NCBI GenBank assembly: GCA_036337435.1
Contig: JAYZEG010000083.1
Location: 1-33,253 of the forward strand
DNA length: 33,253 nucleotides
Source: Myxococcota bacterium
Lineage (GTDB): Bacteria; Myxococcota_A; Bradymonadia; UBA7976; UBA1532
Reading direction: 5' to 3'
Shown here: positions 2,265-31,591 of the stretch, piece by piece
How the letters are laid out: each line of letters opens with the position of its first letter
How positions within the stretch are numbered: position 1 is the first letter of the stretch
The notes under the pieces: model-generated
The model's database searches: none
Told to the model about the DNA's origin: nothing
The model's input: the letters and a program-made list of their open reading frames with translations, nothing else
Translations under genes and position numbers: made by a program

Positions 2265-3875
2265 GTGAGTGTTTTCAGCAAAACTCTAGCTGCGGTGGAG
2301 CAGGGCAATCAGCCGGATCGGTGGGCCTTTATCCCCTACGACCAGCTTTCGGCTCAAACAGGCCTGTTGCGTGATACGCAACCTTCTGAGCTGGGATTGA
2401 TTTTCTGTGAGACGCGGTGGAAACCAAGTCAGCGGCCCTATCACAAGCAGAAACTCGCGCTTCTCTTATCCAATCAGCGGCAATTTGCCCTCGAGATGGC
2501 TCGAGCAGGTTACGCTGTGCGCTACCTCGATGACGATCGGCCCTATGCGAATGTTCTTGAAGACTGCGTGGACGAGTGCGGCGTCATCGATGTGATGGAG
2601 CCAGCAGAATTTGAACTTCGCCAACAGCTCCAACCGCTGGTCGAGCGGGGTTTGATCCGGCCCTTGCCGAACGATTATTGGTTTACCACCGTCGATGATT
2701 TTCGTCGTTCGCAAGGACAGCATCGCAAATGGCGAATGGACAGGTTCTACCGGTATGTACGAAAAAAATATGACGTGCTCGTCGACGGCAAAGGCAAGCC
2801 CGAGGGGGGTAAATGGAGCCACGATGCCGACAATCGAAAGCCGTGGAACGGGCAGCCAGACGCGCCCATTCGGCCCCGCTTTGAGCCGTGTCCAATCGTG
2901 ACTGAAGTGTGTGAGATGGTTGCGACTCGGTTTGCAGACCATCCGGGTGAGCTCAAGCCCGATGCAATCCCGAGCACAGCCGAACAGGCACAACGGCTCT
3001 GGGAATGGAATCTTGCCCATTGTTTGAGCCTATTTGGCCCGTATGAAGATGCCATGAGTCGGCAAGAAGTCTACCTTTTTCACACTGGTATCTCGTCGCT
3101 CCTGAACCTGGGCCGTTTACATCCCAGACGATTAATCGAAGACGTTGCGTCGATGGATATTCCACTGAATAGCAAGGAAGGCTTTATTCGCCAGGTCATT
3201 GGCTGGCGAGAGTTTGTCCGCCATGTCCATCGGGAGACCGACGGTTTTAGGCAGCTTGACGACCAATTTAAGGCGGCCGGTTCATCTGCACACAACCCGT
3301 CGTTTTTGGACGCACACAATCGCCTACCACCCTTGTTTTGGGGCGAGCAAAGTGGGCTTGCGTGTATGGACCACGTCATCTCTGAAGTGTGGGAGCATGG
3401 GTATACTCACCACATCAATCGGCTCATGGTCCTTGCAAATTGGGCTACGCTTCTCGACGTGTCGCCGAGAGAATTGAGCGACTGGTTCTGGGTTGCCTTC
3501 ACCGATGCTTACGATTGGGTGGTCGAACCCAATGTCATCGGTATGGGAACCTTTGGGGTCGGTGAACTCATGACAACAAAGCCGTATGTCTCTGGTTCAG
3601 CCTACATTAACAAGATGAGCGACTACTGCAGTGATTGTCAGTTTTCTCCAGGGAAAACCTGCCCGATGACATCCTTATATTGGGCTTTTTTAGATCGTCA
3701 TAGCGACCGACTCTCCGGCAATCCGCGACTTTCGTTGGTGCTTGGCTCGTCTCGGAAACGAGCGAGCGCAAAAAAACATGAGGATGCTCGAATTGCGCAG
3801 TTGGTAATGGAAACCCTGCAGCGTGGAGAAATGCTCAGTTTAGATCGAATGCATGAAATTGAGCTCGCGTCATGA
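2265..3875 (+). CDS. phrB: FeS-cluster bacterial cryptochrome/(6-4) photolyase (FeS-BCP, PhrB/CryB family)
   Basis: YDQL, HKQKL, WRMDRFYR, GGKWSHDADNR, FGPYEDAM, EGFIRQVIGWRE, HHINRLM and DAYDWV motifs; four cluster Cys (LAC, DYCSDC, TCP). ORF is open from 2160; GTG at 2265 with AGGGG upstream is the preferred start. Confidence 0.9.
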   Translation: MSVFSKTLAAVEQGNQPDRWAFIPYDQLSAQTGLLRDTQPSELGLIFCETRWKPSQRPYHKQKLALLLSNQRQFALEMARAGYAVRYLDDDRPYANVLEDCVDECGVIDVMEPAEFELRQQLQPLVERGLIRPLPNDYWFTTVDDFRRSQGQHRKWRMDRFYRYVRKKYDVLVDGKGKPEGGKWSHDADNRKPWNGQPDAPIRPRFEPCPIVTEVCEMVATRFADHPGELKPDAIPSTAEQAQRLWEWNLAHCLSLFGPYEDAMSRQEVYLFHTGISSLLNLGRLHPRRLIEDVASMDIPLNSKEGFIRQVIGWREFVRHVHRETDGFRQLDDQFKAAGSSAHNPSFLDAHNRLPPLFWGEQSGLACMDHVISEVWEHGYTHHINRLMVLANWATLLDVSPRELSDWFWVAFTDAYDWVVEPNVIGMGTFGVGELMTTKPYVSGSAYINKMSDYCSDCQFSPGKTCPMTSLYWAFLDRHSDRLSGNPRLSLVLGSSRKRASAKKHEDARIAQLVMETLQRGEMLSLDRMHEIELAS

Positions 3876-28236: not shown

Positions 28237-28348
28237 CGTGTTATCATCCGTTGCGGCGCGTTTGAAGGTCCTTTCGTCAACACAGTGATGTGTTGGCGGG
28301 CATGGCGGTCACTTGGCCCGGGCCGTAAATGCTTGTAGGCTTGTGTCT

Positions 28349-29101
28349 ATGAACCCGGCTTCTCTCATCAGTACGATTGTCGCGGTGCTTCTCTGGATTC
28401 TCAGTGGAGCCGTTTTTCTCATCCTCGGCAGCCTCTATCTTGCGCTGTCTTTCATCGTGAAGCCCCGTATGATTCATCAGATTACCAGGGGAGTCTGTCG
28501 AATTCTTCTGGTCTGTGCAGGGCAACGTTTGGTCATCAGAGGTCGATTTCCCGATGTGAAATCAAAGGCGTACATCTATGTATTTAATCACAATTCGATG
28601 TTGGACACCTTCATCATGATGGCCGTTCTTCCAGAATTTACGGCTGCTGTCGGTAAGAAGGAGCAGTTTTCGGTGCCCATTTGGGGGGCGATTCTCAGAC
28701 GTTTTGGTGCTGTTCCCCTTGACCGGCGGAATCGTGAGGCCGCCATCGCGAGTATGGATGCTATCGGCCGATCATTTGCCGACGGGCTTTCTCTGCTTGT
28801 GTCACCGGAAGGCACGCGGAGTCGGACCGGGGAGTTAGGCACCTTTAAGAAGGGGCCGTTTCATTTGGCCGTGCGTCATCAAGTCCCCGTCATTCCAACG
28901 GTCATTCATGGTGCGTTTAATTCGAAACGAAAGGGGGATTGGCGCATTTTCCCCAATCGCATTCAGATCGAAGTATGTCCACCGATTAGTCCAGAGCCAA
29001 GGGAGTATGGTGAGGCTGTTGAAGGCATACGTCACACCGTCCGAGGGGTATTTATCAACCGATTAGAGCGACAGAGAATCGCCTCATGTCGTGTTTCATA
29101 A
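28349..29101 (+). CDS. plsC: 1-acyl-sn-glycerol-3-phosphate acyltransferase
   Basis: N-terminal TM; NHNSMLD (HX4D), K.E.F..P, DR.N, PEGTRS and FKKG.F.LA. ORF is open from 28313. Confidence 0.9.
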   Translation: MNPASLISTIVAVLLWILSGAVFLILGSLYLALSFIVKPRMIHQITRGVCRILLVCAGQRLVIRGRFPDVKSKAYIYVFNHNSMLDTFIMMAVLPEFTAAVGKKEQFSVPIWGAILRRFGAVPLDRRNREAAIASMDAIGRSFADGLSLLVSPEGTRSRTGELGTFKKGPFHLAVRHQVPVIPTVIHGAFNSKRKGDWRIFPNRIQIEVCPPISPEPREYGEAVEGIRHTVRGVFINRLERQRIASCRVS

Positions 29102-29578
29102 GATTGGAGATCGGTCGGGTAAAACAGAAGTGACGTGTTTTGGCCAAGCATTGTTGAGGTGACCGTCGGCGTATCGTGCGCAGCCGAGAATCTGCCGGCC
29201 GTAGGTCACAATGCAGTCACCGTCGCTTAAGTCTGGTTGCTCGATTTGTATGGCTTTTCGGCGTACATAGTCGGCTAACTGTCCGCGATTCAAATCAATT
29301 ATATTACGCCGCGCATGTGCGCCGAAACGTTGGAGGAAGATGCTGGTCGGTTTACCTCGCGGTGGATCCCTACGCATAACCATCATACCGAAGGAGACGA
29401 GACAGCCCAGAACGAAAGGTTCGTTTTCACGGGGGGCGATCCAAACTTCGGTCTGACCAACCTTCTGCCAGAAGCGGTAGTCGCGAAAGGTGTTTGGATT
29501 CATGTCGAAGCGCCAGTGGCACCACGCTGGGACCAGGTCTTGATTTGGGTGAAGTCTAAATTCGACGGAGTTTCGCAA
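29096..29578 (-). CDS. Nip7-like pre-PUA/PUA protein (partner of the m5C methyltransferase)
   Basis: TTG at 29578 with GGAGG 8 nt upstream, inside the 3' end of the methyltransferase; W...RF.....F....FW.K....W, G....R.....KPT...QRFG.HA..N.IDL and G...V.....LG...Y..G.L....PK. ORF is open from 29635. Confidence 0.65.
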   Translation of the reverse strand: MRNSVEFRLHPNQDLVPAWCHWRFDMNPNTFRDYRFWQKVGQTEVWIAPRENEPFVLGCLVSFGMMVMRRDPPRGKPTSIFLQRFGAHARRNIIDLNRGQLADYVRRKAIQIEQPDLSDGDCIVTYGRQILGCARYADGHLNNAWPKHVTSVLPDRSPIL

Positions 29579-30491
29579 TGAAGAATCCTCCGGTGTCATT
29601 GTGGTGTGGCCAAAGTCGAATTGCATTGCAGACATCGTCTCGATATCGGTGGGAGCCCCATTGTGTCGTGCCGGCTTCCGTTTTCAGGGGTGGGGGGACA
29701 TGGATGGGGTCGATGATCGCTTGTTCTGTTGAAATTCGATCCAAAACGCCTTCATTTTCTTCGGGAGCATAGGTGCACGTCGAGTAGACGACAAACCCAC
29801 CAGGCTTGACCATGTCCAGTGCTTTGCGGAGCAAGGCGACCTGCACTTGGGCCACCGTATCTCTTTCCTTTTCAGTAATCAGTTGAGAGCGAGCCTGTGC
29901 TTTTCGGGATGTGCCCTCACAGGTGCACGGTGCGTCAACTAAGATTCGGTCAAATGGTTTCAGTGGCCGCTTTAAGCGGAGGCCATCGTCATGGTTTACG
30001 GTGACACAGGTAATGCCGAGGCGATTCAGATTCCAGCGTAAGCCACCGATACGGCCGTGCTTTTTCTCATTGGCGAGCAATTGACCTTGATCTTTCATAC
30101 CAATGGCCATTCTCACGGTTTTGCCGCCGGGGGCAGCGCACATATCTAATACGCGTTCGCCCGGCTGCGCGCCCACTAAGTCAGCGGCCAAGATCGAGGC
30201 CTCTTCCTGTACATAAACTTCGCCGATAAGATGTAGGAGCCATCGGCCCGGTTGGCTGTCTGATGGGAGTCGCCACCCATTGCTCGTCCAACCCAACCGC
30301 TTGGCTTGTGGACATAGTTGCATTATGTCCGCCTCGATTTCCTGGACAGACCGCTTGAGTGGATTAGCCCAGACCACCCGGGGTAAAGGTTTGGCGGACG
30401 CCTCTATGAACGCCGTATAGTCATCCACGAGTGCCTGATAACGGGTCAGTTTCTGCACGCGGGCCGATCCTCTTTTACGCTCGCGACTCAT
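29556..30491 (-). CDS. RsmB/NOP2 family RNA cytosine-C5 methyltransferase (stand-alone catalytic domain, Trm4/RsmF-like)
   Basis: YVQEEAS, DMCAAPGGKT (motif I), DRILVDAPC (motif IV), VYSTCT..PEENE (motif VI) and PHHNDTGGFF.AK. Confidence 0.93.
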   Translation of the reverse strand: MSRERKRGSARVQKLTRYQALVDDYTAFIEASAKPLPRVVWANPLKRSVQEIEADIMQLCPQAKRLGWTSNGWRLPSDSQPGRWLLHLIGEVYVQEEASILAADLVGAQPGERVLDMCAAPGGKTVRMAIGMKDQGQLLANEKKHGRIGGLRWNLNRLGITCVTVNHDDGLRLKRPLKPFDRILVDAPCTCEGTSRKAQARSQLITEKERDTVAQVQVALLRKALDMVKPGGFVVYSTCTYAPEENEGVLDRISTEQAIIDPIHVPPPLKTEAGTTQWGSHRYRDDVCNAIRLWPHHNDTGGFFIAKLRRI

Positions 30492-30612
30492 TTTTGATAT
30501 ACGAATCCCGTGACCGCAACGCTAATCGTCCGAGTATGGGGTCTATATGACTACAGCAGGGCGGATTGTCCGCCCACACTGCGCCGCACCGCGCCGGTAG
30601 GCCGATGCTTGA

Positions 30613-30636
30613 TTTCATCCACCTCAGTGGACGAAA
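30613..30636 (-). terminator. 10-bp hairpin just downstream of the RRM gene
   Basis: Minus strand TTTCGTCCAC-TGAG-GTGGATGAAA, 5 nt after the stop codon; no U-tract, so it may be a stabiliser rather than an intrinsic terminator. Confidence 0.4.
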
Positions 30637-30641
30637 GTGAT

Positions 30642-30935
30642 TTAGTTGCGTCCGAAGGAACGGCGACCGCCGCCGCCGCCACCGCCGCGCTGCTCGCGTG
30701 CAATGTCGACCCGGATGGTGCGTCCATCGAGTTCGCTATTTGAAAGTTGGTCAACGGCTGCTTGGGCACCTTCTTCGCTGGTGTAGGTTACGAAGCCGAA
30801 CCCGCGTGAACGACCACTCTCGCGATCCGTAATAACCTTTGCTTCGACAACTTCTCCACAGCTCTCAAATGCCGTGCGAAGTGAATCGTCAGTCGTGGCC
30901 CATGCCAAACCACCTACAAATACCTTGGAACTCAT
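30642..30935 (-). CDS. Single-RRM glycine-rich RNA-binding protein
   Basis: RNP2 VFVGGL, RNP1 RGFGFVTY, LDGR.IRV and a GGGGGGGRR tail; AAGGA RBS. Confidence 0.95.
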   Translation of the reverse strand: MSSKVFVGGLAWATTDDSLRTAFESCGEVVEAKVITDRESGRSRGFGFVTYTSEEGAQAAVDQLSNSELDGRTIRVDIAREQRGGGGGGGRRSFGRN

Positions 30936-31168
30936 TCTGCTCTGTCCTTATGGCAAGCTGTCTTGCCTGATACGTTTCTCTTCGATCGCCCTAAGCAGAA
31001 AAACCCAGAGCGTCGTTGTCTCTTTAGCCCACTCTCAAGGGAGCTGAGAAGTGAAATCAGTGATCCATGTCGTTTTTTTTAAAAATTGGGGTGTTTTTCA
31101 GCGAAATTTGTTTTTTGTTCGGGTTCGATCAGTGACAAACGAGAGTGTCTTTACTGGTCGACGGTCTC

Positions 31169-31591
31169 TCAGCGTTGATTTGGATCAGACCCACTGTGGT
31201 ACAACCACCGTCCATTGACCTGTCTGAAAAGACTCTTTTCTGTCATTTTGACGGCGCGTCCATCCTGTTCCAAGTGGGCATCAAATGTGACCCAGGCGCG
31301 CATGTCGGACCGTTCCTGTTCACCGATACTCAGTCCCTTGAATTTCGTCGACCTAGCAAAATCTCTCAGTTCCGTTAGCCAGGTTAAATGGTCGTTTCGC
31401 CAATGCGGTCCTGTTTTGTCCGTTGTCTTGATGATGTAGTCCAATATCCCCAGCGCATACGCGCAGTATCGGGAACGCATCAGTTGCAGGGGGATAAGGG
31501 GGTCTTTACCGCGATGAAAGGGACCACAGCAACGCTTGTATTTTAGCCCACTGTGGCATGCGCACTTTGAATTAGCGGAGGCCTTTGCCAT
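31169..31591 (-). CDS. ychJ: YchJ family SEC-C motif protein
   Basis: C.C.SG..Y..CC.PFH, LMRSRY.AY, YI..T, V.F.A and E.S.F....GRW.Y..G. Confidence 0.9.
   Translation of the reverse strand: MAKASANSKCACHSGLKYKRCCGPFHRGKDPLIPLQLMRSRYCAYALGILDYIIKTTDKTGPHWRNDHLTWLTELRDFARSTKFKGLSIGEQERSDMRAWVTFDAHLEQDGRAVKMTEKSLFRQVNGRWLYHSGSDPNQR

Follow-up and report, generated by a model that had tools for sequence, protein, structure and literature searches.

The window analysed here, a stretch of 33,253 nucleotides (nt) from contig JAYZEG010000083.1 of the Myxococcota bacterium assembly GCA_036337435.1, contains on its reverse strand two overlapping genes that probably encode the two subunits of a co-translated RNA 5-methylcytosine (m5C) methyltransferase of the RsmF/YebU-aTrm4 family, as judged from their sequences and their conservation. 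The first gene (29556..30491) specifies a protein of 311 amino acids, an RNA m5C methyltransferase core of the RsmF/YebU family, which would represent the complete catalytic subunit. The second gene (29096..29578) specifies a stand-alone protein of 160 amino acids, referred to as the partner throughout, which would provide a pre-PUA and PUA RNA-binding module made as a separate polypeptide. We propose that translation of the 3′-end of the enzyme gene renders accessible a GGAGG sequence located in its T-G-G codons and that the ribosomes initiate the partner at a TTG codon, so that both proteins would be made together by translational coupling. The partner would then dock on the core in trans, like the fused module in RsmF and like Nip7 on Nop2, and the docked partner would position the substrate RNA. 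By analogy with the known enzymes, the candidate targets are the helix-44 cytosines of the 16S rRNA (RsmF), C48/C49 in the variable loop of tRNA (the haloarchaeal enzyme), or both.

The junction between the two genes and its conservation

The enzyme gene is an open reading frame (ORF) that ends with a TAG stop codon at 29558-29556 and the partner with a TGA at 29098-29096. The frame of the partner is open from 29096 to 29635 on the reverse strand and is shifted by +1 relative to the enzyme frame. At the junction, the enzyme codons ACC GGA GGA TTC TTC ATT GCG specify T-G-G-F-F-I-A, and the sequence GGAGG (29587..29591) is contained within the codons for T-G-G. At a spacing of 8 nt it is followed by a TTG codon (29576..29578) in the frame of the partner. 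An alternative in-frame ATG at 29599 lies 5′ of the GGAGG and is not kept in relatives. Moreover, the public gene call P0001 comprises exactly 160 amino acids, matching the TTG. From the conservation of the TTG in relatives, described below, and from the public gene call we infer that the partner starts with the TTG at 29578. Because this codon occupies positions 29578-29576 and the enzyme stop codon positions 29558-29556, the genes overlap by 23 nt and the partner is 160 amino acids long. The sequence thus bears out the original prediction, made from the letters of the window, of a 23-nt overlap, a partner of about 160 residues and a GGAGG within the TGGFF codons.

The pair is widespread among relatives. 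Of 24 other genomes of the same family, 22 contain the partner as well as the enzyme gene, the partner covering 16 genera, which argues that the pair has long been resident in the family. Neither gene was found in genome G003, which is 89% complete, and in G012 the enzyme gene is located at a contig end. When the junctions of 24 family loci, including the window, were surveyed, enzyme and partner were in separate frames in all of them. Seventeen loci share the junction of the window, termed type A, with GG[AG]GG followed after 5 or 8 nt by a TTG in the +1 frame. The partner starts at a GTG 4 nt past the enzyme stop codon in two loci, at an ATG 16 nt past the stop codon and behind GGAGA in two further loci, at a GTGA overlap in frame +2 in one locus and at a GTG at position -7, likewise in frame +2, in another; one locus (L015) was not assigned to a junction type. 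As the arrangement recurs in every relative examined, it is far beyond chance.

The codon usage at the junction is informative in this regard. In the 17 type-A loci whose G+C content is 0.62 or more, GGA serves as the first glycine codon of T-G-G 16 times and GGG once, whereas GGA represents only 4.8% of the remaining glycine codons in the same ORFs. This difference supports the reading of GGAGG as the Shine-Dalgarno sequence of the partner. Among 39 fused homologues, three have GGA at the same glycine position, and none of 75 haloarchaeal ones does. Judging by this bias, GGAGG and TTG are maintained by selection beyond the needs of the enzyme protein, as expected for an overlapping coupled gene pair, and the conserved GGAGG/TTG arrangement supports the earlier proposal of a two-gene, translationally coupled RNA m5C module. 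The ratios of nonsynonymous to synonymous substitution rates (dN/dS) relative to the closest relative amount to 0.070 (partner) and 0.087 (enzyme); these are rough values with a saturated dS and indicate strong purifying selection on both genes.

These observations are difficult to reconcile with an ordinary fused rsmF gene that carries a frameshift introduced by assembly or sequencing, or that a mutation has recently turned into a pseudogene. Changing one base near 29556-29575 would indeed join the two frames to an RsmF-like protein of about 465 amino acids, and fused forms are common among the homologues, as described below. However, all 24 family loci are split in different assemblies, with several junctions and frames, strong purifying selection acts on both halves, and GGAGG together with TTG is selectively kept. 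Since the junctions within the family are solved in different ways, an assembly frameshift is excluded, and we regard this explanation as a whole as vanishingly improbable. The split is real and old.

A fused RsmF-like protein could also arise if ribosomes reaching the end of the enzyme gene shifted into the +1 frame in a programmed manner. The partner is in the required +1 frame, and the potential shift site, ATT-TAG in the window and CTT-TGA in most relatives, resembles the CUU-UGA of prfB. In addition, most type-A loci end with TT before the stop codon, such that the partner frame reads a conserved Phe. The stimulator of the prfB frameshift, however, has a spacing of 3 nt, whereas the GGAGG is located 25 nt before the last sense codon, and its spacing is ideal for initiation at the TTG. 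The type-A loci L034 and L049 end with CTA-TGA or TTA-TAG. Moreover, in six family loci and in many outside the family the partner is in frame +2, overlaps the enzyme gene by ATGA or GTGA, or starts past the stop codon. Frameshifting in a programmed manner thus appears very improbable to us, and translational coupling of two separate proteins remains the preferred reading of the junction.

The catalytic core and its detached module

The Pfam scan of the enzyme yielded PF17125 (RsmF_N; E 2.3e-9, 38 bits against a cut-off of 34, residues 18-96) and PF01189 (E 4e-46, 157.6 bits against a cut-off of 27) and nothing else; both a NusB-like N-domain and a C-terminal domain are absent. The enzyme is hence a member of the PF01189 family with an RsmF-type N-domain. 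It harbors the S-adenosylmethionine-binding motif DxCAAPGGK, and sequence and alignment place Cys189 in motif IV (DAPCTC; codon 29925..29927) and Cys239 in motif VI (STCT; codon 29775..29777), both of which are conserved without exception in the 22 family members aligned (alignment A2). We take their roles to be those of the RsmB/F family, with Cys239 as the expected catalytic nucleophile. In line with the original prediction, the protein therefore consists of the core only, with both catalytic cysteine motifs. The motifs quoted there as resembling the haloarchaeal proteins, RY..LVDD..AF and PHHNDTGGFF.AKL as well as FW.K, KPT...QRFG and G.L....PK, are likewise present, one spacing being off by a residue.

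By sequence, the closest solved structures are 1ixk (6.7e-45), 3m6u (4.8e-40), human NOP2 (8.3e-38) and 2frx (4.2e-32). The NCBIfam models for Thermus RsmF, the archaeal tRNA m5C49 enzyme and E. coli RsmF are about equally similar to the enzyme. One further PF01189 gene is present in the window genome, on contig C1.

The partner contains the RsmF PUA-like domain PF13636 (Methyltranf_PUA) at 29135..29275, with 36.6 bits (E 4.5e-9) in one scan and 39 bits in another, against a cut-off of 27.6, and is colinear with positions 363-469 of the 480 positions of the E. coli-type RsmF model (NCBIfam). The secondary structure of the model and a weak match to DUF7122 (PF23437) suggest an N-terminal pre-PUA domain with the approximate limits 29303..29560. 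This match, in the N-terminal half of the partner, reached 16.4 bits (E 0.012) and thus remained below the cut-off of 27. In homologues of the partner, DUF7122 scores up to 112.7 bits (1.1e-32, P0068), and an Atlas structure search aligned the partner to a DUF7122 cluster with a template modelling (TM) score of 0.83. The partner is a divergent relative of DUF7122, not a scoring member.

An alignment-based structure model of the partner was obtained with a mean predicted local distance difference test (pLDDT) score of 91.8 and a predicted TM score (pTM) of 0.84. The best Foldseek match of this model was E. coli YebU/RsmF (2frx; E 6e-7, TM 0.69), covering all 160 columns, followed by 3m4x, T. 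thermophilus RsmF and then Nip7 (E 0.012). The full-length partner is accordingly modelled as a two-domain pre-PUA and PUA protein, the predicted fold being equally near to Nip7 and to the C-termini of RsmF. The Nip7 models of Pfam (PF03657 and PF17833) did not match the partner at E values up to 1, PF17833 found no match in the window genome at E values up to 0.1, and when the partner alignment was compared with 11 Nip7 sequences from archaea by hhalign, the probability was 0.5%. Taken together, the sequence comparisons identify the partner as the detached pre-PUA/PUA module of the RsmF C-terminus, which shares its fold with Nip7, and not as a member of the Nip7 family. Hence, the Nip7-like nature proposed in the original prediction holds for the fold and fails for the sequence, and the PUA-like fold it presupposed is present in Pfam, structure model and Foldseek alike. 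Its caveat that the partner might simply be the split C-terminus of RsmF, or an assembly frameshift, is correct as to the identity of the module and contradicted as to the frameshift.

Canonical Nip7 can be found in the corresponding position in archaea. Among 61 genomes of archaea that belong to the same phylum as a haloarchaeon, 12 contain a strong canonical Nip7 and 11 a full-length partner of the DUF7122/PF13636 type, and only G064 contains both. These counts reflect lineage-level patterns that are not independent and statistically weak, and they hint that canonical Nip7 and the partner type are nearly mutually exclusive in these genomes. A Nip7 PUA match over the cut-off was found in none of ten pair-carrying archaeal genomes checked, five of them haloarchaeal and five small metagenome-assembled genomes labelled Micrarchaeota or uncultured archaeon. 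Six of the 12 Nip7 loci (L277-L282, corresponding to genomes G070, G091, G059, G108, G100 and G081) have a PF01189 core directly upstream that overlaps the start of Nip7, which comprises PF17833 and PF03657. The two genes share about 8 nt at the Nip7 ATG, as for instance in L279:1498-2983 (-). The six cores match the window enzyme with E values from 1.4e-41 to 6.1e-47, and Pfam confirmed two of the loci. These archaeal loci have the gene order of the window, with Nip7 in the place of the partner.

Several observations weigh against a dedicated two-subunit enzyme of the RsmF type. Partner-type genes without a methyltransferase gene within the fetched flanks are present in genomes G080 (L283) and G064 (L293); both carry PF13636, and L283 carries DUF7122 in addition. 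Because an adjacent methyltransferase gene is missing in at least these two archaeal genomes, the partner may be able to act alone. When the partner profile was compared with the sequences of the PDB, the match to YebU was weak but colinear (E 1.3), and the other match was at chance level. Furthermore, the enzyme did not reach the equivalog cut-offs of NCBIfam, neither those for RsmF (NF008898, 166.6 of 588 bits; NF041567, 182.6 of 690 bits) nor that for the aTrm4 family tRNA_cyt_mtase (NF040814, 176.3 of 550 bits, with an alignment spanning positions 14-304 of 305). As no such cut-off is reached, the sequence does not allow a target to be transferred by orthology.

The solitary archaeal genes and the fold, which is as near to Nip7 as to the RsmF C-termini, would be compatible with a partner that is an independent Nip7-like RNA-binding or ribosome biogenesis factor, encoded in the same operon and not a subunit of the enzyme. 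By sequence, however, the partner is the C-terminal module of RsmF, which is covalently attached in 39 of 80 homologue loci; within the family its gene always overlaps or abuts the enzyme gene, and neither gene is retained or lost without the other. We therefore consider an independent factor improbable and the subunit of a methyltransferase the better description of the partner.

Distribution, phylogeny and gene neighborhood

The split extends beyond the family. We inspected the 80 loci with the closest enzyme homologues in species-representative genomes, some of which are shared with the family loci. The partner profile matched a separate ORF in 40 of these loci and the C-terminus of the same ORF in 39, one locus being interrupted by the contig end. 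The fused ORFs comprise about 455-570 amino acids, and the set includes some longer open frames that are extended upstream. The junctions of the split loci differ by lineage and comprise ATGA overlaps, an in-frame TGA-CGC-ATG and starts past the stop codon, and the type-A junction is common to Myxococcota, some Gammaproteobacteria and one Desulfovibrionales genome. In L101, a metagenome-assembled genome of the Bacteroidota, both genes are in the same frame near 3394-3400, and only TGA-CGC precedes the ATG of the partner, which constitutes a third kind of junction.

A word-indexed homologue search with the partner returned five proteins only, and an exhaustive profile search was used instead. 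It yielded 1410 cluster representatives at E values up to 1e-3 and 597 at 1e-10, and 144 of the best 150 matches were shorter than 250 amino acids. When 139 of these 150 were scanned with Pfam, PF13636 was present in most, a weak DUF7122 match in many and a strong one in three, and one protein matched the pre-PUA domain of YebU. In the Atlas, stand-alone clusters of the partner type stem from several bacterial and archaeal phyla, some of them automatically named RsmF C-terminal domain-like, and in public databases the orthologues are named "hypothetical protein" or bear a generic NOL1/NOP2 label. Our literature searches retrieved no paper on RsmF split from its PUA module and none naming DUF7122, and in the papers examined that mention at least two of Nip7, RsmF and YebU the co-mentions were incidental.

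As the original prediction had envisaged, a homologous pair exists in haloarchaea. Starting from P0068, a strong match to DUF7122 and PUA, we surveyed 80 Halobacteriales species loci, and in all 80 the enzyme homologue and a stand-alone partner are adjacent on the same strand. The enzyme homologue ends at most 200 nt upstream of the partner in 78 of the loci; in the other two the strand is the same as well, the distance in L108 being distorted by a long spurious open frame. The E values of the partner profile range from 2e-24 to 2e-33 in the 80 loci, and those of the enzyme from 4e-35 to 5e-74 in 24 of them. The haloarchaeal partners start after or around the enzyme stop codon and have a strong DUF7122 N-domain, and GGA-GG is never found at their junctions (0 of 75). 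The enzyme of the pair is the sole PF01189 gene over the cut-off in five of five named haloarchaeal genomes.

Considering this distribution, acquisition of the whole cassette from haloarchaea, as put forward in the original prediction, has to be weighed. In our careful tree, the clade of the window enzyme is supported by 100/98 and contains 13 split enzymes and a single fused one (L039). It mixes Myxococcota, halophile-type Gammaproteobacteria and one Desulfovibrionales genome, and the cassette therefore moves between phyla. The haloarchaeal enzymes form a separate clade (99/100), and the relations among the major clades lack resolution. As both clades are monophyletic, the window enzyme is not nested among the sampled haloarchaea, though an approximately unbiased (AU) test did not reject joining the two clades (p 0.667), and the joined tree was 14.4 log-likelihood units above the quick free tree. 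The direction of a transfer is unreadable from such an unrooted relation. In addition, the junctions of the two groups differ, and the pair is found not only in the 22 other family genomes but also in other families of the class. Acquisition from haloarchaea is thus not supported and in our view rather unlikely, despite the universal occurrence of the pair in the haloarchaeal loci. A starred clade in the quick trees that united all bacterial sequences apart from haloarchaea was dropped, as its branch is not upheld by the AU test and the careful tree.

On the trees, the split or fused state requires 5-9 changes, at least 3-4 of which are forced by starred branches, indicating that fission or re-fusion occurred repeatedly. 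The fused enzyme of L039 (2294-3784, +) is a 497-amino-acid open frame with a linker of about 35 residues after ...GGFFVAKLRRL, and within its otherwise split clade it has either kept the ancestral state or arisen by re-fusion. With respect to the possibility, considered beforehand, that the enzyme nests within ordinary RsmF, about half of its nearest homologues are fused and its own clade is mostly split. E. coli RsmF falls outside the clade formed by the window enzyme and most fused bacterial homologues and sits on a long branch. It groups with the Nip7-linked archaeal enzymes in the careful tree (99/95); both branches are long, and the grouping may be an artefact.

The genes that flank the pair differ between genomes. 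Upstream, and as stated in the original prediction, lies a gene for an RRM protein (30642..30935, reverse strand; PF00076, 1.3e-23). Among the loci searched, this neighbor was seen in only one other genome, that of the closest relative (L002 and L027, which are the same contig). A functional link of the module to the RRM gene was rejected, as this neighbor is not conserved, and the gene is probably incidental and not part of the module. In most of the family's remaining genera (L004-L012 and others), the enzyme gene follows a permease-like gene and not an RRM gene, and the enzyme ORF overlaps the 3′-end of this upstream gene, which by the look of its sequence (...LVGGLTAGGVKG*) probably encodes an ATP-binding cassette transporter permease. 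In the window, the RRM and the methyltransferase gene are separated by a 150-nt spacer that contains a 7-bp GC-rich hairpin, GGGCGGA-CAA-TCCGCCC (30559-30575, reverse strand), with no T-run. A promoter and terminator scan of 28900-31200 returned no sites and did not call this hairpin as a terminator, and Rfam and tRNA scans of the window gave no matches. On the other side, a convergent acyltransferase gene (28313..29101, forward strand; ORF list and Pfam) overlaps the 3′-end of the partner gene with its own 3′-end by 6 nt (29096-29101), and the two relatives of the same genus likewise have this neighbor.

Relation to known enzymes and significance

The pair shares features with several characterized systems and differs from each of them. 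Bacterial RsmF/YebU, represented by E. coli (2frx), T. thermophilus (3m6u-x) and Enterococcus (3m4x), is one chain with pre-PUA and PUA domains in the same polypeptide, whereas the window enzyme ends at residue 311 and the module is encoded by a separate ORF in the +1 frame. RsmF methylates C1407 of the 16S rRNA, or C1400, C1404 and C1407, in 30S subunits, and m5C1407 is the modification made by the E. coli enzyme. Eukaryotic Nop2 (NSUN1) and Nip7, which act on the pre-60S particle, have a similar architecture, though the partner of the window lacks a detectable sequence relation to Nip7. In contrast to the window enzyme, Nop2 has long N- and C-terminal extensions, its target is the 25S/28S rRNA, and the genes for Nop2 and Nip7 are unlinked in eukaryotes. 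Archaeal aTrm4 (P. abyssi PAB1947; P. horikoshii PH1374, 1ixk) is a core-only protein of about 310 amino acids, like the window enzyme. A separate helper, archease, is needed by aTrm4 for its specificity, as indicated by the title of a paper by Auxilien et al. (2007; cited in PMC2836557); archease is unrelated to the PUA protein of the window. The haloarchaeal tRNA m5C enzyme of the HVO_1594 type has a homologous core and a homologous stand-alone partner, as in the window, but belongs to a separate clade and differs in its strong DUF7122 N-domain and its junction.

The window pair thus differs from RsmF proper in chain number and equivalog score and from Nip7 systems in the sequence of the partner. 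Its features are those of a conserved two-subunit m5C methyltransferase of the RsmF/aTrm4 type, which would resemble RsmF with the C-terminal module provided in trans. Such a mode of action would be consistent with excerpts of two papers that implicate both the PUA and the methyltransferase domains of RsmF in binding to the 30S subunit (PMC13694986; PMC2836557), and with the tight interaction between Nop2 and Nip7 stated in a passage of another (PMC4510066).

Regarding the substrate, the haloarchaeal literature is instructive. As described in part of one study, H. volcanii has a single COG0144 gene, HVO_1594, with tRNA m5C predicted at positions 39, 40, 48 and 49 and rRNA devoid of m5C (PMC2584109), and an excerpt of a second study states that tRNA m5C is lost upon deletion of HVO_1594 (PMC3017900). 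The literature we searched reports no role for the gene neighboring HVO_1594. Haloferax was not among the best 80 loci, and the link to HVO_1594 rests on the five other haloarchaeal genomes and these papers; the H. volcanii control genome does contain a DUF7122 match. E. coli RsmF, in turn, also makes m5C49 in tRNA-Tyr under stress, as stated in a section of a further report (PMC11572931). From the literature on HVO_1594 and E. coli RsmF it follows that the window pair may target 16S rRNA, tRNA, or both.

A broader reading, which we put forward tentatively and with somewhat more doubt than confidence, is that prokaryotes have their counterpart of Nip7 in the stand-alone pre-PUA/PUA protein, as an obligatory and exchangeable RNA-targeting subunit of m5C methyltransferases of the RsmF/Trm4/Nop2 type. 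One ancestral two-part enzyme would then exist in four states: bacterial RsmF as a single fused chain, the operons of the DUF7122 type in Myxococcota and haloarchaea, the operons of a methyltransferase with Nip7 in archaea, and the eukaryotic heterodimer Nop2-Nip7. If so, the uncharacterized gene beside HVO_1594 would be needed for tRNA m5C formation, and the window pair may methylate tRNA besides or instead of 16S rRNA.

RsmF and Nop2 represent textbook families of RNA m5C enzymes, and the requirement of Nop2 for Nip7 and the contribution of the C-terminal module to RsmF are usually handled as separate questions. Here, the same core and the same kind of module are encountered in three arrangements, namely fused, split with overlapping genes, and with canonical Nip7 replacing the module. 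Since expression of the core is possible both together with the partner and in its absence, the pair offers a natural experimental system for the function of the module. In genome annotation, labelling pairs of this kind as frameshifted rsmF pseudogenes should be avoided. Finally, the uncharacterized DUF7122 and hundreds of "hypothetical" proteins are hereby given a testable role, and a likely missing subunit of the haloarchaeal tRNA m5C enzyme is flagged.

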